Shown: positions 1,780-63,000, counted from the first letter of the stretch. The stretch is 64,000 bases of DNA from Candidatus Omnitrophota bacterium (GCA_029261035.1 JAJDCD010000025.1:130926-194925), one strand, 5' to 3'. Numbers and translations are program-made. The notes: generated from the sequence alone by a model not told the origin.

Positions 1780-1877
1780 AACATCACCTCAAAAGTCATT
1801 GCGAACGAAGTGAAGCAATCTCATGAGATCTCCATGCTCCTTATAGGAGCTCGCGATGACCATTGTCTTAGGCAAAG

Positions 1878-1913
1878 TGTCATTCCCGAAATCTTTAGTC
1901 GGGAATCCATAAC
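1878..1913. repeat. R1-like degenerate palindromic repeat
   Basis: tcATTCCCGAaatctttagTCGGGAATccataac. Same stem as R1 with one substitution. Confidence 0.5.
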
Positions 1914-1944
1914 ACTTATGTATTACCGCACCTTTTGCCAAAAA

Positions 1945-1979
1945 CCTGGATCCCCGACACAAACATTCGGGGATGACAA
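1945..1979. repeat. R1 palindromic repeat copy 3
   Basis: cctggatccccgacacaaacattcggggatgacaa, in direct orientation with copies 1 and 2 on the other side of the ETF-QO gene. Confidence 0.75.
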
Positions 1980-1997
1980 TAGGTCGGCCCTCCTACT

Positions 1998-2029
1998 CGC
2001 TTCACTCTTCACGACTCACGCTTCACGAG
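1998..2029. repeat. Tandem heptanucleotide repeats (CTTCACG-like x4)
   Basis: cgcttcact cttcacg actcacg cttcacg ag, in the spacer between the aminotransferase stop and the ETF-QO start. Confidence 0.5.
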
Positions 2030-4962: not shown

Positions 4963-5184
4963 TTATTTTCTTTTCTTTTTTGTAGCTTTTTTCTTTGCTT
5001 TTTTCTTAGCTGGCTTTTTCTTAGCAGCTTTTTTCTTTGCTTTCTTTTTTGCTTTTTTCTTAGCAGCCTTTTTCTTAGCAGCCTTTTTCTTTGCTTTTTT
5101 CTTAGCTGGTTTTCTTGCTACTTTTCTTTTCTTAGTAGCTTTTTTCTTACCAGCTTTTTTCTTTGCTTTTTTCTTTGCAGCCAT
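4963..5184 (-). CDS. Histone H1-like / Hc2-like lysine-alanine repeat DNA-binding protein
   Basis: 73 aa made almost entirely of AKKKA/KKAAK pentapeptide repeats. The DNA is a tandem ~15-nt repeat (gcttttttcttagca). Composition matches chlamydial Hc2 / AlgP-type histone-like proteins. Confidence 0.7.
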   Translation of the reverse strand: MAAKKKAKKKAGKKKATKKRKVARKPAKKKAKKKAAKKKAAKKKAKKKAKKKAAKKKPAKKKAKKKATKKKRK

Positions 5185-5610
5185 TGTTAACTCCTTCCCT
5201 CATCCTGAGGTTAAGTTAATGAACCTACTATTAATGAATCATCGCTTTATTAGGTTTAGTTTTCAAAAAACATTTACTTTCGACTTTACTCTCAAAAATG
5301 CGAGATATTCTACTTCGAAAGTTTGTACTCTTATTAACGGAATAATATATCTATTCCTTTATAAAATATTTTACCACTTCATTCTAGTGAATTACAAGTA
5401 TTAATCGCATTTTTTTAAAAAAAGATTATTTATTTTTTTGCGAGAGAAATTATTTTTGTTTAAATTAAAAATATTTTTTTGAATTTTAGTTTTAAAATTT
5501 GTTTTTTCTCTTTTTTTTTCATAGCATTTTAAACTTTTGGTTTTAATTTTTATCAGCGTATTAAAAAATAAAACATTAGATTAACTCTCTCTACCCTATA
5601 ACAATGTGAG
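5185..5610. promoter_or_regulatory. Very AT-rich 425-bp divergent intergenic region
   Basis: Long A/T tracts lie between the Hc2-like gene on the minus strand and the lipoprotein gene on the plus strand. This is probably promoter DNA. Confidence 0.35.
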
Positions 5611-6136: not shown

Positions 6137-7435
6137 TCACCTCCCTGACCCAAATAAATTAATAACATCACTCCGAATCTTTTTATCCTTATCAAAGTCC
6201 AATAATGCTAATTTTACTGTAAACTCTCCAAACTGATCATTGATGAGATCCATTGCTTTTCTCAACCTTAACTGCTTTTCTGATTCTTTAAGAAACCAAA
6301 GATCCTCCCCCTTACAGGACAAATCGGAAACACTCACCCCTATCAAACGAATTCCTCTCTTAATAAAAGAATGCTCCTTCGTCTTTTTAGAAAAACCCAT
6401 AAATATCTCTAAAGACTCTTTATATATATCTTGTCCATCGTCCATAGCATAGTGACACTTCTTTTGCTTCCCCAAGCTCTTCTTATCACTAAATCGTATT
6501 TTTAAATGGATGGTTCTTCCTTGTAAATTTTGTTTCCGTAAACGTCTGCCTACTCTTTCTGAGAGCCAAAGCAAATACTTTCTAAACTCTCGATAATCAT
6601 AAGTATCTTCTAATAAAGTATACGAGTGTCCTACAGATTTAACTCTATCCTTTGCATCAGCCAAAGCCACAGGAGAATGATCTACCCCCATCCCCATACG
6701 TTTTAATACTGGTCCAATAATACCAAATCTCTCAAAGAGAATATCTTCCGGAAATTGAGCCAATTGACCGCAGGTACGAACACCTAACAAATGAAGCTTA
6801 TCTGTCATATTGGGACCAATACCACACAAGGCATTAATAGGCCTATCTTTTAAAAACCCTTCAACTTTAGGAGAATCAATACGCAAGAGTCCATTAGGCT
6901 TACAATGATCACTGACAAGCTTAGCTAAAAGTTTATTAGGAGCTATTCCAACAGACATCGTAATACCAAAACGCTTCTGAACCCAAGACCTCAAACTGTT
7001 ACCCAAATCTTCCACACAAGGAAAGAAAAACTTGTACGTATCTGTGACATCCATAAAAGCTTCATCAATCGAAAATATCTCTACCTGAGGGGTAAACTCA
7101 GACAACTTCTGAAAAATAATCTGTGAGGTCTCTACATATTTTTGACTATTCGCCGGAACCACAATAGCATGAGGGCATAGTTTTCTTGCCTGAACCAAGC
7201 TCATTCCAGACCCAACCCCATAAGGGCGCGCTTCATAACTCGCAGCACAAACAACCCCTCGAGTCATCGAATGCCCTCCTACCAAAACAGGTTTTCCTCT
7301 ATAATTTGGGTTGGCACTCTGTTCTACAGAAGCAAAAAAAGCATCCATATCGACATGAAATATGATTCTTTCTCTATTGGATATATTTGTTGTTGGAAGT
7401 TGATTGGTAAGATGAACAGATTTACGAGTAAGCAT
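6137..7435 (-). CDS. dinB: DNA polymerase IV (Y-family, DinB)
   Basis: IIFHVDMDAFFASVEQ...KPVLVGG, then the Y-family palm and little-finger pattern. It sits immediately downstream of lexA. Confidence 0.85.
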   Translation of the reverse strand: MLTRKSVHLTNQLPTTNISNRERIIFHVDMDAFFASVEQSANPNYRGKPVLVGGHSMTRGVVCAASYEARPYGVGSGMSLVQARKLCPHAIVVPANSQKYVETSQIIFQKLSEFTPQVEIFSIDEAFMDVTDTYKFFFPCVEDLGNSLRSWVQKRFGITMSVGIAPNKLLAKLVSDHCKPNGLLRIDSPKVEGFLKDRPINALCGIGPNMTDKLHLLGVRTCGQLAQFPEDILFERFGIIGPVLKRMGMGVDHSPVALADAKDRVKSVGHSYTLLEDTYDYREFRKYLLWLSERVGRRLRKQNLQGRTIHLKIRFSDKKSLGKQKKCHYAMDDGQDIYKESLEIFMGFSKKTKEHSFIKRGIRLIGVSVSDLSCKGEDLWFLKESEKQLRLRKAMDLINDQFGEFTVKLALLDFDKDKKIRSDVINLFGSGR

Positions 7436-7445
7436 TGAAACGTTA

Positions 7446-7530
7446 GAAGTCGGAAGTCAGAAGTCGGAAGTCAGAAAAGTTCTGATGTCCGCCTTCTGTC
7501 GTCTGACCTCTGCTTTCTGACCTCAGAGGA
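7446..7530. repeat. Heptad tandem/inverted repeat array (GAAGTCN x4 then TTCTGAC-like units)
   Basis: agaagtcggaagtcagaagtcggaagtcagaa | aag | ttctgatgtccgccttctgtcgtctgacctctgctttctgacc forms an imperfect long hairpin centred on cagaa-aag-ttctg. It lies in the 5' leader of dinB inside the lexA operon. Confidence 0.6.
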
Positions 7531-7536
7531 CAAGGG

Positions 7537-7806
7537 TTATGCAGAATAAGCCATTTGAAATTCTTCGTCATGAGCTTTCTCCAAAGACCAACCTAATGTC
7601 CTGGAGTTAAGACTGACTTCAAACACTCCAGAATCAGCAACGATCTGAAAGAAATAGTGAAGCGACTCCCCTTTCATTTCATGCCACTGGTAAGTTACGG
7701 ACTTCACATGATACTTACGACTCTTCCATATAAACCACACAGGTTGAGTAAGTCCTCTTCTAAAGATAGCTCCAACTTCTATTTTCTCTGCAATTTCTGT
7801 AATCAT
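7537..7806 (-). CDS. Hypothetical 89-aa protein in the lexA-dinB operon
   Basis: Good RBS (ggagagatt-ATG), co-directional with and between lexA and dinB. No recognisable domain. Confidence 0.45.
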   Translation of the reverse strand: MITEIAEKIEVGAIFRRGLTQPVWFIWKSRKYHVKSVTYQWHEMKGESLHYFFQIVADSGVFEVSLNSRTLGWSLEKAHDEEFQMAYSA

Positions 7807-7865: not shown

Positions 7866-8459
7866 TTAGTATTTTCTAAACAAGCTTACGAGCTTACCTA
7901 AAACCTGAACATCCTTCACCTTGATATCTTCATACTTAAGATTTGCTGGTCTTAAAATAATATGGTTTTTCTTTTTATAAAATTGTTTGAGGGTCACCTC
8001 ATCCTCTATGAGAGCAGCCACAATATCTCCATCTTGAGCTGTTTTCTGTTCATGCATTACCACATAATCCCCATCGTGAATTCCTTTCTCAATCATACTG
8101 TCTCCCTGGACCTTAATAATATAGTTACCCGCTTGAGCAAATTCTTTAGGCAAAGGAATACTCTCTTTAATATCTTCAACAGCCAACATGGGACGCCCAG
8201 CTGCAATTTGTCCAAGCAAAGGAATTTCTATCACTTCCGGCTTTTCAGAAGTAAATCGAATAGAACGAGATTGGCGCGGTTCATGAGTAAAAACACCTCG
8301 GGTTCTTAAATGAGACAGGTGCTCATGAACCGTGCTGGCTGCAAGACCCAAAGCTTTGGCTATATCTCGAACCGAAGGAGAGTATCCTTGTTCGGAGATA
8401 AAGCCTTGAACATATTCAATAATGCGTTGTTGTGTAATTCCAGTATTTGCCTTTGTCAT
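7866..8459 (-). CDS. lexA: LexA repressor (S24 peptidase)
   Basis: N-terminal wHTH and a C-terminal S24 domain with AAG cleavage site, GDSM serine and LKQF lysine. The start is chosen at MTKANTG (8459), because the longer ORF start at 8483 falls inside the LexA box. Confidence 0.85.
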   Translation of the reverse strand: MTKANTGITQQRIIEYVQGFISEQGYSPSVRDIAKALGLAASTVHEHLSHLRTRGVFTHEPRQSRSIRFTSEKPEVIEIPLLGQIAAGRPMLAVEDIKESIPLPKEFAQAGNYIIKVQGDSMIEKGIHDGDYVVMHEQKTAQDGDIVAALIEDEVTLKQFYKKKNHIILRPANLKYEDIKVKDVQVLGKLVSLFRKY

Positions 8460-8476
8460 AACAGTTCGAAGTATAC

Positions 8477-8490
8477 CGAACATATGTTCG
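8477..8490. promoter_or_regulatory. LexA operator (Cheo-box type CGAACATATGTTCG)
   Basis: Perfect palindrome cgaacatatgttcg about 18 nt upstream of the lexA start. It matches the GAAC-N4-GTTC consensus used by Gram-positive-type LexA. Confidence 0.7.
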
Positions 8491-15977: not shown

Positions 15978-16289
15978 TCACCCTTTCAGGTGATCCATTT
16001 TTTCCACATTAATCGTATTAAAATTTCGGTACACAACGAGCACGATACTTAAACCCACAGCCACTTCAGCTGCTGCAAGCGCAATCACAAAGAGCGTAAA
16101 AATCTGCCCTACAGCCTTATCCACATCCATAAACCGAGAAAAGGTCAAAAAGTTAATATTAGCTGCATTCAAAATAAGCTCAGTAGCAATCAAAATACCA
16201 ATCAAAGAACGTCTAGCAAGCAAGCCATACAACCCAATACAAAATAAGGCTGCTGACAATATTAAATAAGGAGTGATGTCATTAATCAT
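15978..16289 (-). CDS. nuoK: NADH-quinone oxidoreductase subunit K
   Basis: ~103 aa from the internal Met (MINDITPYL...). The track ORF extends to 16331 and overlaps nuoJ. Confidence 0.75.
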   Translation of the reverse strand: MINDITPYLILSAALFCIGLYGLLARRSLIGILIATELILNAANINFLTFSRFMDVDKAVGQIFTLFVIALAAAEVAVGLSIVLVVYRNFNTINVEKMDHLKG

Positions 16290-16812
16290 TTGGAGAATCC
16301 TGTATTGTTGTTTTTTTATCTTTTTGAGCAATCACCAAAGAGCCTAAAATAGAAACTAAAAGCACAACCGAAATAAGCTCAAAAGCAAAGGCATAGCGTT
16401 GAATAATAACTTCCCCTATATGTTTTACCGAGTTATCCCCTACCATCTCGGGAAGCACCACCCAAGGCGTATGAATAAAAATATACGAAAGCGCCACAAA
16501 TACTAAAAGACTTACAGAAAGAGAAATTAATATTTTAGTTACGCTTCTTTTTGACGGCTTCAACGAAAGTGATGGTGAAAGCATAATTGCAAAAATAATC
16601 GCAATCGAAATTGCTCCAGCATAGATTAAAATTTGTATCAAAGCCACAAATTCACTTCGAAGAAAAATAAAAATCCCAGCGGTTCCAAAAAGGGTCAAAG
16701 CCAAACTCAATGCGTTATGAAAAATATTCTTAAGACCCACAGCCATTACAGCACCGCCTAAGGTCACCACAACAAAAAACAAGAATGTAAGATCAGTTAT
16801 TAGCGACAACAT
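16282..16812 (-). CDS. nuoJ: NADH-quinone oxidoreductase subunit J
   Basis: 176-aa membrane subunit, in operon order between nuoI and nuoK. Confidence 0.7.
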   Translation of the reverse strand: MLSLITDLTFLFFVVVTLGGAVMAVGLKNIFHNALSLALTLFGTAGIFIFLRSEFVALIQILIYAGAISIAIIFAIMLSPSLSLKPSKRSVTKILISLSVSLLVFVALSYIFIHTPWVVLPEMVGDNSVKHIGEVIIQRYAFAFELISVVLLVSILGSLVIAQKDKKTTIQDSPND

Positions 16813-17263
16813 CCACTGGAACCTTTCTTTGTTCTACATCTTTTAGAAAATCGTAAATAAAGGTGTCTTTCTTATCATCCGCTAAATTAAATTCCGGAGA
16901 ATGCTCCAAAGTCTTTGTAGGACATACTTCAATACACAAACTACAAAGAGAACACGTGGAAAAATTATAAACAAACTCTGTCGGTCTCTTACGACCCCCT
17001 TCTGGAGGCTTTTCGCCTGCTAACTCCAGAAAACATTTTGAAGGGCAAATATTTTTACATTTCAAACAGGCAATACAATCATGATTTTGTGTTTCAGGAA
17101 AAACTACAAATCGAATTCTTCCCTTATGTACATTTGAAGGTTGAGACGGCTGTAATGGATATTGTAATGTAACAGGGCGTTTAAACATAAACTTCAAGGT
17201 CACACCCATACCCTCAACCAAACTCCACGCACCCAACCCAATTTCTTTAACTGTGTTTAACAT
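16793..17263 (-). CDS. nuoI: NADH-quinone oxidoreductase subunit I (2x[4Fe-4S])
   Basis: Two ferredoxin motifs, CIACLKCKNICPSKC and CSLCSLCIEVCP. Confidence 0.85.
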   Translation of the reverse strand: MLNTVKEIGLGAWSLVEGMGVTLKFMFKRPVTLQYPLQPSQPSNVHKGRIRFVVFPETQNHDCIACLKCKNICPSKCFLELAGEKPPEGGRKRPTEFVYNFSTCSLCSLCIEVCPTKTLEHSPEFNLADDKKDTFIYDFLKDVEQRKVPVDVVANN

Positions 17264-17406
17264 CTTCTTTTATCCCTTGCCCTATCGGGCTATCAGCAAT
17301 CAGCCTTCAGCGAAAATCAACTCATTGTCATTCTGATCCGCCTTTGGCGGAGAAGAATCTAAAACCATCTCTCTCAAGAGATCCTTCGTATGCACTCAGG
17401 ATGACA

Positions 17407-18366
17407 TTACAACTTCAGCACTACCGCAGTGATTAATAAATTAAGAATAGCTATAGGCGTTAGTATCTTCCAACAAAAATTCATTAATTGATCCGGTCTC
17501 AATCGAGGAAAAGTCCATCGAATCCAAATAATCACAAAAACAAGAAAATAAACTTTAAGCAAAAACCAATGAATCCCATCCACGAAAGGCCCTTGCCACC
17601 CACCTAAAAACAAGGCTGTTGTCACGCAAGAAAGCAAAAACACATTAGTGTACTCTGCTAAGAAAAATAAGGCATAACGCATACCCGAATACTCTGTGAG
17701 AAAACCCGCGACCAACTCGGACTCTGCTTCAGGCAAATCAAAAGGGGCTCGATTCGTCTCTGCAAGACCCGAAATCATAAAAATAATAAATGCTATTGGC
17801 TGCATCAACACAACCCAAAATTGATCTTGATACGCAACCAACTCCGTCATCTTTAATGAACCTACCATAAACACCACACTCAAAGCTGATAATAAAAGAG
17901 GGACTTCATAAGCGATAACCTGCGCTACAGATCTCATGGCACCCAGCAAAGAGTATTTATTATTCGAAGCCCACCCCGCCATAAAGATAGCAATCACTTC
18001 GATACTGGCAAATGAAAACAAATATAAAAGACCCACGTTCAAGTCTTTAATAATTAAATTTTCCCCAAAAGGCATAACAATAAATAAAAGCAGCGCAGGA
18101 AAAAAGGCTAATAAAGGAGCTTGAATAAAAAGAAATTTATTCACGTTCTTAGGAATAATCTGCTCTTTCCCTAATAACTTAATTGCATCGGCTATGGTCT
18201 GAAAAATACCATGGGGTCCTACATGCATCGGCCCTAATCGTCTTTGAATATGAGCACTTACCTTTCTCTCTGCATAAACCAACACCAAGGCATTGATGCT
18301 CACAAACCCAAACACAACAACAGCTGTAACCGCAATATTCATTCCTTCAAATAATAATTCGTTCAT
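17407..18366 (-). CDS. nuoH: NADH-quinone oxidoreductase subunit H
   Basis: 319-aa NuoH/ND1-like membrane subunit. Confidence 0.85.
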   Translation of the reverse strand: MNELLFEGMNIAVTAVVVFGFVSINALVLVYAERKVSAHIQRRLGPMHVGPHGIFQTIADAIKLLGKEQIIPKNVNKFLFIQAPLLAFFPALLLFIVMPFGENLIIKDLNVGLLYLFSFASIEVIAIFMAGWASNNKYSLLGAMRSVAQVIAYEVPLLLSALSVVFMVGSLKMTELVAYQDQFWVVLMQPIAFIIFMISGLAETNRAPFDLPEAESELVAGFLTEYSGMRYALFFLAEYTNVFLLSCVTTALFLGGWQGPFVDGIHWFLLKVYFLVFVIIWIRWTFPRLRPDQLMNFCWKILTPIAILNLLITAVVLKL

Positions 18367-18390
18367 TAATTATCCTTTTTCAGCTCAACC

Positions 18391-18494
18391 AGCGGATAGC
18401 GCATAGCGTTTAGCGTATAGAAAAACAAAAAAACGCTTCATCTGTCTTTTTGACAAATGTCCCTATACGCTCCACGCTAAACGCTCTACGCTAT
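18391..18494. repeat. Inverted heptad array (AGCGNNT x4 / NNACGCT x4) forming a long hairpin in the nuoCD-nuoH spacer
   Basis: agcggatagcgcatagcgtttagcgtatag ...40-nt loop... ctatacgctccacgctaaacgctctacgctatcg. A related direct copy tagcgtttagcgtagagcgtatag is at 62637-62662. Confidence 0.6.
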
Positions 18495-20104
18495 CGATCT
18501 ATATCCGGTACAACGATATCTAAACTTCCTAAAACACAAACGGCATCCGCCAACAAGTTTCCTCGGACAACCTCTTTCATAACATTCATATTTGAATAAC
18601 AAGGAGTTCTCATCTTAATTCGATATGGATTTTCAGTACCATCGCTAATCAGATAGATTCCCATCTGACCTCTTGGAGACTCTACAGAAAAATAATACTC
18701 TCCTGCCTCCGGTTTAAATCGTTTTGGAGCATCCGGGTTGTTATAAGGGCCTTCCGGAATCTTAGCTAAGGCCTGTTCCAAGATACTTAAGCTTTGCCAC
18801 ATCTCTTCAACACGAACTTCATAACGACTATAAGCATCGCCGGCTGTGGCTGTAGGGATATCAAATTTAAATTGATTATAAATCCCGTACGGTTCGTTTT
18901 TACGAACATCGTATTCCACACCACAAGCTCTAAGAGGAGCTCCTGTAACTCCATAAGAAATTGCCTGTTCTTTGGTAATCACACCCACACCCTGAGTTCG
19001 TTTCTGAAATATAATATTTTTAGTTATCAGTGTTTCATAATCCTTAAGATTAGCCCTTAACATAGGAATAAATTTGCGAGCACGCTCTATGAATTCTGGA
19101 GACAAATCTCTTTCTTGTCCCCCAAACCGAAAGTAGTTGTAGGTTAAACGACTTCCGTCACACATCTCAAACATCGTTAAAATTTCTTCTCGGTCCTGAA
19201 AACAATAAAGAAATGGAGTAAAACTACCCAAGTCCATTAAAAAAGCTCCGTACCATAGCAGGTGACTTGCAAGACGTTGTAATTCAGAAACAATAATACG
19301 AATGTATTCCGCTCTTTCCGTAATCGTAATACCTAAAGCCCGTTCAACCGTTCCCACATAACCCCAGTTATAAATCATACCCGCCAAATAATCGACACGA
19401 CTTGGATATGGGGTCCATTGCAAATAATTTCCATTTTCAGCCATCTTCTCATCTGCTCGATGAGCATAACCTACAACTGGCTCCAAATCTAAAATAGTCT
19501 CCCCATCCATCTTAAGCAACAACCTCAGCACCCCATGCGTACTTGGATGTTGAGGCCCCAAATTAACAAAATATTCTTGTTCGTCCGAAACCAAGCTCTT
19601 ATCACTTACTTGTTGGTTTGCGTTAGATTCTAATTCCCAAGCCCTATTTACATCTTCAATAGAATCACCCTCAAATTTAAAACCTTTCCTAAGAGGATGA
19701 AAGTCCGAATATTCAGGAAGCAATAAACGTTTTAAGTTAGGATGATTCTTAAACTTAATTCCATACATATCATAAGCTTCTCTTTCATACCAATTCGCAC
19801 CCCGATAAACTTGTGAAATACTAGGAACCTCTTCGGTCCATTCTTGCTTTAATCGAACAACCACACGAAGAAGACCTTCGAAACGGTTAAACTGATACGC
19901 TAACAAAAAGTTTTCGCCAAAATCTGCAGCTGTAATGTTTTCTAGAAAAAAGTCTGCTTTCAGCATCACTTGAGCAACAGCAATCAATTTGTCTTGAGTG
20001 GTTTCAACTTCAAAATGAAATCCTGTTTTACTATAATCACTCACAACAGAAGTTTCTGGATTTACTAAACTAGTGAGTTGTGATTTGATTTCCTCGACTG
20101 TCAT
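18491..20104 (-). CDS. nuoCD: NADH-quinone oxidoreductase fused subunit C/D
   Basis: 537 aa. The N-terminal 30-kDa NuoC part is fused to the 49-kDa NuoD part (…HPSTHGVLRL…). It is followed directly by nuoH, with no nuoE/F/G between. Confidence 0.85.
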   Translation of the reverse strand: MTVEEIKSQLTSLVNPETSVVSDYSKTGFHFEVETTQDKLIAVAQVMLKADFFLENITAADFGENFLLAYQFNRFEGLLRVVVRLKQEWTEEVPSISQVYRGANWYEREAYDMYGIKFKNHPNLKRLLLPEYSDFHPLRKGFKFEGDSIEDVNRAWELESNANQQVSDKSLVSDEQEYFVNLGPQHPSTHGVLRLLLKMDGETILDLEPVVGYAHRADEKMAENGNYLQWTPYPSRVDYLAGMIYNWGYVGTVERALGITITERAEYIRIIVSELQRLASHLLWYGAFLMDLGSFTPFLYCFQDREEILTMFEMCDGSRLTYNYFRFGGQERDLSPEFIERARKFIPMLRANLKDYETLITKNIIFQKRTQGVGVITKEQAISYGVTGAPLRACGVEYDVRKNEPYGIYNQFKFDIPTATAGDAYSRYEVRVEEMWQSLSILEQALAKIPEGPYNNPDAPKRFKPEAGEYYFSVESPRGQMGIYLISDGTENPYRIKMRTPCYSNMNVMKEVVRGNLLADAVCVLGSLDIVVPDIDR

Positions 20105-20763
20105 TATTTATCTTCTTCCTTCTTTTCTTCCGTTTTTTCATCAAGCGTATCCAACGAAGAGTCCTTAACTGTTTCTATTTTTTGATCCGGACGAGGCCCA
20201 GCAGGCTTTTCTTCTCCTGGAGGCGTTGGCGACGGAGTTCCCGTTTCCGGTACCGCCAACACAACATCTTCTTGCCCTGCAACACCCGCAATAATTTTTC
20301 TTTGTAAAAGAAGTAAACCTTCGATAAGACCCTCAGGTCTTGGAGGACAGCCTGGGACATGCACATCCACAGGAATAATACGATCCACACCTTCAACAAT
20401 TGCGTATTGTCCTTCATACTGAAAAGGGCCTCCCCACATGGCACAGCCCCCCATAGCAATTACATACTTAGGAGAAGGCATTTGATCATAAAGCATTTTG
20501 ATTTTAGGAGCCATTTTTCTAGAAACAGTTCCTGCAACAATCATCAAATCCGACTGTCTTGGAGAAGCACGAAAAACACCAGCGCCAAAACGATCCAAGT
20601 CATATTTAGATGCACTTGCTGCCATCATTTCAATCGCACAACAATGAAGACCAAATGTGAGTGGCCACAATGAGTTTGCACGTGCAATATTTAATAACTT
20701 ATCGAGTTTAAAAAAACTAAACCCAGGGGAACCTGATTTTTGAGATGCTTCTACTGACGCCAT
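20104..20763 (-). CDS. nuoB: NADH-quinone oxidoreductase subunit B
   Basis: [16 protein letters not shown]...GGCA, plus a ~50-aa Pro/Glu/Lys-rich C-terminal extension. Confidence 0.85.
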
Positions 20764-21113
20764 TGAAAAACTCCCTTACGCATCGCATAAATTAAAGCCA
20801 ATGTTAAAATAGCAACAAAAACAATCACTTCTAATAAAACTCCCATTCCCTCAATACTTCTAAAGGCCAAAGCAACAGGAAACAAAAAAACGACTTCCAC
20901 ATCAAAAACTAAAAAAATAAGCGCATATAAATAATAAAGGACATTAAAACGAATCCATGCAGAACCAATGGTGGGAACACCACTTTCATAAGTTGTTGTT
21001 TTGTCTTTCCCGATTCCCTTAGGGGCAATCAGATAAGGAACAACCGTGGCCATGAAAGCAAAGAATAAGCCAATTAGAATAAAAGAAAATACCCAGAAAT
21101 AGTCTTGTAACAT
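20751..21113 (-). CDS. nuoA: NADH-quinone oxidoreductase subunit A
   Basis: 120-aa 3-TM protein at the head of the operon. Confidence 0.8.
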
Positions 21114-62636: not shown

Positions 62637-62662
62637 TAGCGTTTAGCGTAGAGCGTATAGAC
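62637..62662. repeat. Heptad repeat tagcgttt-agcgtag-agcgtat (R4), paralogue of the nuoCD-nuoH spacer arms
   Basis: ctagcgtttagcgtagagcgtatag versus 18398-18420 gcatagcgtttagcgtatag. Confidence 0.55.
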
Positions 62663-62822: not shown

Positions 62823-62860
62823 CCCAGGCAAAATAAGTGCTCGATGCACTTATTTTGGCA
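62823..62860. repeat. R2 hairpin repeat copy
   Basis: cccaggcaaaatAAGTGCtcgatGCACTTattttggcaaccc. Confidence 0.7.
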
Positions 62861-62898
62861 ACCCTCCACACCCCCCACTTGTATTAAAACACTTCAGG

Positions 62899-63000
62899 AG
62901 GAGGAAGGAATATTCCCCGCCGCGAGTTCACAAAAGGGACAGTCCCCAATGGGGACAATCCCTTTTGTGCTGTCTGAGCGCTGGGGAATATTCCTTCCGA
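62899..63000. repeat. R3 structured repeat copy with an inserted inner hairpin
   Basis: Perfect 16-bp outer stem ggaaggaatattcccc/ggggaatattccttcc encloses GCGAGTTcacaaaa, an inner hairpin gggacagtcccc-aat-ggggacaatccc, and ttttgtgcTGTCTGAGC. Confidence 0.75.

Follow-up and report, generated by a model that had tools for sequence, protein, structure and literature searches.

We analysed a 64,000-nucleotide stretch of DNA from a Candidatus Omnitrophota bacterium (JAJDCD010000025.1:130926-194925; hereafter the window) and in particular a hairpin-forming element at positions 7445-7530, in the spacer between dinB and the 89-codon open reading frame (ORF89) that precedes it in a lexA operon. The element is built from units of 7 nucleotides (nt), or heptads, and probably represents the gene-less form of an intergenic insertion class, of the 23S rRNA intervening sequence (IVS) type, whose heptad arms elsewhere enclose a gene of the PF05635 family. 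The class would be recognized by two inverted arms, each of about 4-6 tandem 7-nt units (rarely 8-9 nt). In the proposed full-length form, a PF05635/TIGR02436 four-helix-bundle gene ('S23p / 23S rRNA intervening-sequence protein') lies between the arms, and such cassettes appear to occupy short spacers of co-directional genes in the sense orientation. In the window, an element of the GTCAGAA/GACAGAA unit family would have inserted into the lexA-ORF89-dinB operon, in a spacer whose length is otherwise ~17 nt. Few unexplained small microbial genes are as common as those of PF05635 (annotated as 'four helix bundle / 23S rRNA IVS protein'). Intergenic heptanucleotide repeats have been described since 1990, and to our knowledge no origin or role has been accepted for them. 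The general association of PF05635 genes with heptad arms is a more interesting result than the window hairpin itself.

Structure and position of the dinB-spacer hairpin

In the element, tandem heptads are opposed by inverted heptads. On the plus strand, GAAGTCG/GAAGTCA units are repeated four times (7446-7476) and are followed by AAAG and then by six degenerate TTCTGAC-like units (TTCTGAT, GTCCGCC, TTCTGTC, GTCTGAC, CTCTGCT and TTCTGAC). Tandem Repeats Finder (TRF) detects a period of 7 with 4.6 copies at 7445-7476, which is also a perfect 14-mer repeated 2.3 times, and a period of 14 with 2.1 copies at 7495-7524. Both TRF and the sequence agree with a preliminary description of this DNA, in which direct GAAGTC(G/A) heptads run into inverted heptads. 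All genes around the element are on the minus strand. In the mRNA sense, the 5' arm (7481-7530, minus strand) consists of six degenerate, G-rich heptads (GGUCAGA, AAGCAGA, GGUCAGA, CGACAGA, AGGCGGA and CAUCAGA-A; G minus C = +6). The loop (7477-7480) reads CUUU and is predicted by folding to be 3 nt, and the 3' arm (7445-7476) contains 4.6 C/U-rich heptads (UCUGACU UCCGACU, twice; G minus C = -7).

The predicted fold joins 7445-7476 to 7481-7511 through 26 pairs, with a single-base mismatch roughly once per heptad. On the mRNA strand its energy is -37.1 kcal/mol (z = -3.6), which none of 200 shuffles equalled. The outer heptads (7512-7530) lie outside the main stem. The imperfect hairpin proposed in the preliminary description is thus present, although its paired arms are ~31 nt rather than ~35 bp long. 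The element fills the spacer between the ORF89 stop (7537) and the dinB ATG (7435), which measures 101 nt, close to the ~100 nt described before, and leaves 7 nt to the ORF89 stop on one side and 10 nt to the dinB AUG on the other. No Rfam family matched anywhere in the window at the gathering threshold.

A strong hairpin in an intergenic spacer could also be an intrinsic terminator or attenuator between ORF89 and dinB. However, no U-tract follows the stem on its 3' side (CUUCUAACGUUUCAAUG), the terminator scan made no call at this position, and the stem is much longer and more mismatched than those of typical terminators. We consider this explanation very improbable.

Heptad arms enclose PF05635 genes in many phyla

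A pattern scan of species-representative genomes gave 85 PF05635 ORFs with full flanks from 80 loci, which belong to Planctomycetota, Nitrospirota, Desulfobacterota, Bacteroidota, Clostridia, Patescibacteria, Elusimicrobiota, Omnitrophota, Methanophagales and others. A flank was called strong when its lag-7 identity was at least 0.76 over 21 comparisons, and random positions in the same loci were used as controls. Strong flanks were present upstream of 28 of the 85 ORFs and downstream of 30, compared with 6 and 10 of 425 controls, respectively; at other lags the counts were 0-9. In 36% of the flank pairs one side is an inverted copy of the other (inverted-repeat score of 14 or more), which was seen in none of the 425 controls. 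With a looser cut, period 7 was found on at least one side in 52/85 ORFs. About 10 ORFs have 8-nt units (in both arms at loci L019, L026, L063, L074, L079 and L081), at least one has 9-nt units (L037), and 14/85 show nothing by the thresholds used. Because a minority use 8- or 9-nt units, the conserved feature is short-period tandem arms, with 7 nt strongly preferred.

Nearly every locus has its own arm sequence, while identity among the PF05635 proteins is 60-76% across phyla. For arrays separated by more than 1 kb within one locus, 32% of comparisons agree at 6 or more of the 7 positions, versus 2.9% between loci. In 50 cases the PF05635 ORF has the same orientation as the two long ORFs that flank it, and in 5 it is antisense to both; the cassette arms adjoin the neighbours' stop and start codons at median distances of ~10 and 16 nt. 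This strong sense bias of the gene-bearing form suggests that it depends on host transcription. None of the 80 loci is located in rRNA, so the rRNA location of the IVS looks exceptional; the rRNA-borne IVS can be regarded as a special case of an element that lives mostly in operon spacers.

The link between heptad arms and PF05635 genes is also present in cultured organisms. The arm unit is AGTAGGG in Nostoc edaphicum (NZ_CP054697), GGGAACA in Nostoc sp. C052 (NZ_CP040276), CCTCTGC on plasmids of Nostoc PCC 7120 (NC_003267, NC_003276), CCTCTGC-like in Stanieria (AP017376) and GGTTYAA on a Riemerella plasmid (NZ_CP081938). In Anabaena sp. 90 (NC_019429), the unit is GGTGACA. These data tie PF05635 genes to heptanucleotide repeats across phyla, including Nostoc, Calothrix and Anabaena, which are hosts of the short tandemly repeated repetitive (STRR) sequences.

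Several observations concern the PF05635 protein and its annotation. The heptad-armed gene on the Anabaena sp. 90 plasmid (44265-44633) lies between cas6 and cas4. A large clustering study (PMC10910872) lists '23S rRNA IVP' with the domains linked to CRISPR. Placements of the Anabaena type may explain that listing, with PF05635 as a passenger and not a CRISPR component. C-terminal tails such as HRTTNHEPRTRRKI in the PF05635 proteins P0131, P0159 and P0205 (alignment A1, columns 137-154) are probably annotation artefacts that arise from read-through into a heptad arm, in which a 7-nt unit gives a period of 7 amino acids (aa). A PF05635 relative, XCC0516 from Xanthomonas campestris, has a structure deposited as five chains (2GSC). 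The Avd model (NF033474) matches the cassette protein weakly (E = 0.004, well below the model cutoff). In IMG/VR, no PF05635 relative carried by phage was confirmed by the method used.

Gene-less hairpins of the same class

A lag-identity scan of 583 kb of fetched DNA found 129 arrays at lag 7, whereas lag 8 gave 26 and each of the other lags 0-15. Of these 129 arrays, 71 are at PF05635 gene ends and 58 are elsewhere. Among the inverted pairs, about 37 enclose a PF05635 gene (loops of 359-716 nt) and about 9 are short-loop hairpins. The latter are from Nitrospirota, Patescibacteria, Elusimicrobiota, Clostridia and Desulfobacterales loci and from the window, and several of them share the unit of an adjacent cassette.

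Scanning metagenomes for the unit family of the window (GWCRGAN, 3.5 copies) gave at least 120 matches. The matches listed include at least 24 short-loop gene-less hairpins and 2 intact PF05635 cassettes; the gene-less form thus outnumbers the gene-bearing form. The unit of the hairpin at locus L104 is exactly GTCAGAA. At locus L152, GACAGAA/GTCAGAA arms surround an intact PF05635 ORF (E = 5e-23), and this locus directly links the window hairpin family to a PF05635 gene.

The two forms share a further property. The 5' arm is G-rich in 34/38 cassettes and the 3' arm is C-rich in 33/37, and among the gene-less hairpins scored (the GWCRGAN matches listed) the 5' arm is G-rich in 25/25. Both window hairpins, the one upstream of dinB and a second one between nuoCD and nuoH (18391-18494), comply with this rule. 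We rejected the idea that the G-rich 5' arm proves the window hairpins to be in sense with their operons, as the property is identical on both strands: a palindrome reads the same on either strand, and the rule cannot orient it. One may speculate that a G-rich arm placed first avoids the transient exposure of a C-rich tract that would load Rho and make the insertion polar within operons.

Compared with this class, the dinB-spacer hairpin has inverted arms, at least 3 tandem 7-nt units and a G-rich 5' arm. It lies in a short co-directional spacer whose orthologous site is polymorphic, and its unit family surrounds an intact gene elsewhere. It does not have a PF05635/TIGR02436 ORF between its arms. 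Because the loop is 4 nt and the window contains no PF05635-like ORF, we place the hairpin in the gene-less form and not among the cassettes.

Heptads are in excess over chance in the window. When arrays were defined by a 4-mer core repeated at least 3 times and periods of 5 to 12 were compared, 7 arrays of period 7 were found, versus 1.05 +/- 1.07 in dinucleotide shuffles, and five of them have at least 4 copies. None of the other periods from 5 to 12 gave an array reaching 4 copies in the window, and period 7 is the sole enriched period there that is not divisible by 3. The 50-kb nuo region of E. coli contains no period-7 array at the strict threshold.

A conserved period with a variable sequence is what one might expect of a binding-site array for a repeat-reading protein, with each 7-nt unit bound by one subunit or module, whether on DNA, single-stranded DNA or RNA. 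Such a protein might be a cold-shock-type protein with the oligonucleotide-binding (OB) fold, the four-helix-bundle protein itself as a pentamer, or a reader resembling transcription activator-like effectors (TALE) or PUF proteins. The arms have 4-6 units and 2GSC comprises five chains; PMC4679880 cites work in which CspB is reported to bind heptamers, one protein per unit. G.U mismatches are also not in excess, and selection has thus not demonstrably acted on RNA pairing. Against this stand at least 4 unrelated units within 64 kb, and the free variation of the units next to proteins as similar as the PF05635 proteins. The window has no PF05635 gene, no TALE- or PUF-like gene turned up in a non-exhaustive scan of it, and simple binding arrays leave the strict inverted symmetry unexplained. 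Since at least 4 unrelated heptad sequences coexist in one window, no single sequence-specific reader fits, and the TALE- or PUF-like reader suggested in the preliminary description finds no support. A protein that reads structure or register is conceivable. Overall, we give the binding-array explanation a small chance.

The orthologous spacer in related genomes

The closest relatives of the window DinB show 57-64% identity to it; one of them, at 62%, carries the name 'Candidatus Omnitrophica'. The relatives with syntenic lexA-dinB loci are probably Omnitrophota. Their spacers between the ORF89 homologue and dinB differ in content. In L086 and L087 the spacer is empty, with no hairpin and only 17 nt between ORF81 and dinB. 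In L002 and L003 it holds a 119-aa PF05635/TIGR02436 'four helix bundle' gene, whose arms are a perfect 30-nt inverted repeat of NNCCGTG units; the gene starts 4 nt past one arm, and its stop codon overlaps the other. In L004 the spacer contains a toxin-antitoxin pair, and a PF05635 gene with AAAATGA/TCATTTT arms lies one spacer upstream. L088 has a 350-nt interior with no intact ORF between ATTTCAG/ATTGCAG arms, L085 has ORF6N and HI1420-like genes, and L001 has hairpins similar to repetitive extragenic palindromes (REP) together with CGCAATT arrays. Because the orthologous spacers differ in this way, the window hairpin appears to be an insertion at a hot spot and not a conserved part of the operon. 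Comparison of filled spacers (L002/L003 and L088) with the empty site (L086/L087) revealed no target-site duplication.

Two other features of these loci were noted. The spacers on either side of the ORF89 homologue, toward lexA and toward dinB, in L004 (9356-9996) and L085 (1450-2399) hold a Gp49/helix-turn-helix (HTH) pair and an ORF6N gene with an HI1420-downstream-type gene, respectively. Since the spacers also collect such toxin-antitoxin-like pairs, the SOS operon appears to be a general landing site for small selfish modules. In L002, a perfect CGTGGAC array of 3.7 copies (5231-5256) lies right at the beginning of a gene called with 205 aa (ATGAATCGTGGACCGTGGACC...), which means either translation of the heptad array or a miscalled gene start.

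The spacer comparison bears directly on whether the hairpin is a cis-regulatory RNA that the host evolved for the SOS operon, dedicated to the processing, stability or translational control of dinB. Its position inside the operon, 10 nt from a dinB AUG with no visible Shine-Dalgarno sequence, would suit such a role, as would the additional pairing, in the minimum-energy fold, of the region around the AUG with that around the ORF89 stop, and in L001 heptads are likewise found just before the dinB start. However, L086 and L087 manage with a hairpin-free spacer of 17 nt, other relatives carry unrelated inserts with different units, and the same architecture is found in the nuo and other spacers and in unrelated phyla. 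We therefore regard a dedicated regulator as quite unlikely. The recurrence of heptad hairpins inside operons, on which the preliminary description based a role in mRNA processing or stability, is upheld. By analogy with IVS stems, mRNA processing is plausible as a consequence of the insertion; it does not account for the element as an origin or an operon-specific regulator.

Local replication slippage, in which heptamers are a favoured length and the inverted pairing is coincidental, would require neither a relation to PF05635 nor mobility. Heptameric simple repeats are over-represented in many prokaryotes, which has been ascribed to polymerase slippage (work cited in PMC4692102), the perfect 14-mer repeated 2.3 times in one window arm suggests a recent event, and unit copy number differs among Coxiella strains (PMC4990558). 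Yet slippage alone makes no inverted partner. It also leaves unexplained the G-rich 5' arms (25/25 scored hairpins and 34/38 cassettes), the exact bracketing of genes, the sharing of units within genomes (32% vs 2.9%) and the empty orthologous sites. Moreover, comparison of L104 and L106 with the window suggests that one hairpin recurs at sites that are not orthologous and keeps its non-repeat ends. Slippage as the whole explanation thus has little probability.

Nature of the insertion and its possible effects

Taken as a gene-less insertion of the PF05635 class, the hairpin is most readily understood as a passenger, selfish or nearly neutral, and not as a device that evolved for the lexA-dinB operon. 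It would be transcribed together with the operon, and its arms would form an imperfect duplex of 26 pairs ending 10 nt before the dinB AUG. In Coxiella burnetii, the 23S rRNA IVS contains an S23p (PF05635) ORF and a 28-bp terminal stem, with three GACAGAT heptamers and one GACAGAA ahead of the ATG; RNase III cuts the stem at the first repeat, and the unit copy number varies by strain (PMC4990558). Cleavage of the IVS stem by RNase III is known for Coxiella, Salmonella and Leptospira (PMC4990558). By analogy, the dinB-spacer hairpin is probably an RNase III substrate, and the enzyme would cut the duplex between ORF89 and dinB. Alternatively or in addition, the duplex could occlude the dinB initiation region. 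Either event would uncouple dinB expression from that of lexA or lower it relative to lexA. In this operon, expression of an error-prone polymerase may be reduced or uncoupled by a duplex so near its start codon. An RNase III gene was not among the ten mid-size window ORFs scanned, and the search went no further.

Several points weigh against assigning the hairpin to this class. There is no PF05635-like ORF anywhere in the 64-kb window, and the 4-nt loop bears no trace of a gene. The plus-strand fold (-41.2 kcal/mol) is slightly stronger than that of the mRNA strand. In cassette stems, 57 mismatches are of the G.U type and 70 of the A.C type on the sense strand (p = 0.29); because G.U-type mismatches do not exceed A.C-type ones, there is no sign of selection on the sense-strand RNA, and the arm symmetry may be kept by a copying process at the DNA level. 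The 80 PF05635 loci are the best matches to one subfamily and are mostly metagenome-assembled genomes. The L088 interior was considered as a PF05635 pseudogene; its termini resemble the protein ends by eye, but hidden Markov model (HMM) and Pfam searches gave no significant match, and the candidate was rejected.

The mismatch data would suit a DNA-level element that acts as a cruciform or single-strand hairpin in recombination, insertion and excision or replication, with RNA folding incidental. No strand asymmetry is seen in the types of mismatch, and the arm class is likewise strand-symmetric; the polymorphic sites and the unit families shared within a genome imply copying. On the other hand, no recombinase or transposase is associated with the elements, no target duplication is present at the compared loci, the gene-bearing form strongly favours the orientation of the host genes, and IVS stems have been proven to serve RNase III as RNA substrates (PMC4990558). 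We consider a purely DNA-level element unlikely, but such a process is compatible with a PF05635-class insertion and could constitute its mobility half.

A broader proposal is that the cassettes and the far more numerous gene-less hairpins form one unrecognised mobile superfamily of bacteria and archaea. It would explain much of the heptanucleotide excess, including STRR, GGGAATC and TAACTGA repeats, and would spread without a transposase in a transcription-dependent manner, with a pentameric protein that reads the repeat register and a G-rich-first rule imposed through Rho. We put this forward only tentatively and think it more doubtful than the assignment of the window hairpin itself.

For annotation, hairpins of this kind should be masked as insertions and not treated as operon-specific regulators, and read-through into their arms can be expected to yield spurious C-terminal tails.

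Relation to known repeats and IVS elements

The closest known relatives are the 23S rRNA IVS with an S23p ORF in Coxiella and Leptospira. Like the window element, they have terminal inverted repeats that form a long stem, and the heptamers in the 5' arm of the Coxiella IVS belong to the same unit family. Unlike them, the window element lies in an mRNA spacer and not in helix 9, 25 or 45, and it has no ORF and a 4-nt loop. In the openly searchable literature, which leaves subscription-only papers outside, we found no paper that links heptamer arrays to PF05635 in general, and Coxiella is the sole case. As far as we could check, the general association has not been previously described.

Heptamer arrays without such a link have been reported repeatedly. 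GGGAATC arrays in Xanthomonas include 70-75 convergent inverted pairs (PMC4692102), TAACTGA arrays are found in Beggiatoaceae, cyanobacteria and Bacteroidetes (PMC4679880), and heptamer arrays lie upstream of recF and recO in Nostoc (bioRxiv 2022.06.06.494920). Together with the STRR of Calothrix and Nostoc, these arrays have 2-14 copies, are intergenic and are often tens of bases from a start codon. The window likewise has tandem heptanucleotide arrays in intergenic DNA, but its units (GTCAGAA, AGCGNNT, CGTGAAG and GCTGATN) and its host lineage differ from the published ones. We compare STRR, GGGAATC and TAACTGA arrays with ours by their published descriptions, in which they are read as simple repeats, G-quadruplex formers or translational signals, without PF05635.

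REP sequences, bacterial interspersed mosaic elements (BIME) and miniature inverted-repeat transposable elements (MITE) resemble the window class in being small, gene-less, imperfect palindromes in spacers, often inside operons and co-transcribed, and in outnumbering their coding relatives. The window class differs from them in its arms of short tandem units and in that only the period, the symmetry and the G-rich 5' rule are conserved. In contrast to REP, its elements share no sequence, and no partner transposase is known, REP-associated tyrosine transposases (RAYT) not having been searched for. As in MITE, inverted arms are present, but no duplication was seen between filled and empty sites and no transposase is known. 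Separate REP-like hairpins coexist with heptad elements in the same spacers. Avd, from diversity-generating retroelements, is a distant, weakly matching homologue of the cassette four-helix-bundle protein; the likeness is confined to the cargo protein, and the loci studied here have no reverse transcriptase and no template or variable repeats.

Other heptad elements and hairpins in the window

The heptad element between nuoCD and nuoH, also reported in the preliminary description, was recovered by TRF and by folding. It lies on the minus strand, with AGCGNNT units in arms at 18391-18420 and 18463-18494 and a 42-nt interior, and has a folding energy of -52 kcal/mol (z = -5.9). The arms have 22 matching bases, and G minus C is +8 for the 5' arm and -5 for the 3' arm. 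In the mRNA sense, the 5' arm (18463-18494) reads AUAGCGU AGAGCGU UUAGCGU GGAGCGU AUAG and the interior (18421-18462) is predicted to form two small hairpins. The 3' arm (18391-18420) reads CUAUACGCU AAACGCU AUGCGCU AUCCGCU and ends 24 nt before the nuoH AUG (18366). The nuoCD stop TAG (18491-18493) is within the first heptad of the arm, which indicates that the insertion supplies or has replaced the stop of nuoCD. In the nuo operon (16282-21113), nuoCD is directly followed by nuoH with no nuoE, F or G between them, all three of which are present in E. coli; at least at this locus, the operon encodes a complex I-like enzyme without the NADH-oxidising module.

Three shorter runs, likewise described earlier, are solo arrays on the minus strand. 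At 2002-2029, a G-rich array of four CGUGAAG-type units (mRNA sense) lies in the spacer between the aminotransferase gene and the electron transfer flavoprotein-quinone oxidoreductase (ETF-QO) gene and adjoins REP-like hairpins. Three GCUGAUN units are found at 17289-17311 in the nuoH-nuoI spacer. A C-rich array (CUAUACG CUCUACG CUAAACG CUAG; 62637-62662) is 17 nt upstream of the AUG of a thioesterase gene and belongs to the AGCGNNT family of 18391-18494.

A second, unrelated kind of small hairpin repeat occupies the same spacers, at 1780-2000 (minus strand) in the window, 9820-9950 in L001 and 250-450 in L088. Examples are GTCATCCCCGAATG...CGGGGAT, GGATTCCCGAC...TCGGGAATGACA and GTCATCGCGAGC...GCAATGAC. 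In L088, such a repeat with inverted ends GTTCTGCACTTTTTGTCATTGCGAG is nested within the heptad-armed element. At 62840-63000 (minus strand), a long inverted repeat (GGAAGGAATATTCCCC...GGGGAATATTCCTTCC) has an inner one nested in it (AAAAGGGA...TCCCTTTT) and is followed, upstream of the thioesterase gene, by a terminator-like hairpin (CAAAATAAGTGC...GCACTTATTTTG).

Genes of the operon and its surroundings

Pfam supports the identities previously given to lexA and dinB. The first gene of the operon, lexA (7866-8483, minus strand), matches PF01726 and PF00717 and is syntenic in L001, L002, L004, L085 and L086. ORF89 (7537-7806, minus strand) has homologues of 81-89 aa at every syntenic locus and no Pfam or NCBIfam family match, and it probably encodes an uncharacterised SOS-operon protein of this lineage. 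Relative to the L086 homologue, it has an extra C-terminal tail, EEFQMAYSA. The DNA polymerase IV gene dinB (6137-7435, minus strand) matches PF00817 and PF11799, and its start was compared with those in L001, L086 and L088; because the N-terminus ML(T/V)RKS is common to the relatives, the start is placed at the ATG at 7435.

Downstream, a 73-aa Lys/Ala-rich, histone-H1-like ORF (4963-5184, minus strand) with AKKKAKKK repeats is encoded by tandem repeats of 12, 15 and 54 nt. Two genes that resemble it are found in the syntenic place in L001 (12580-13253).

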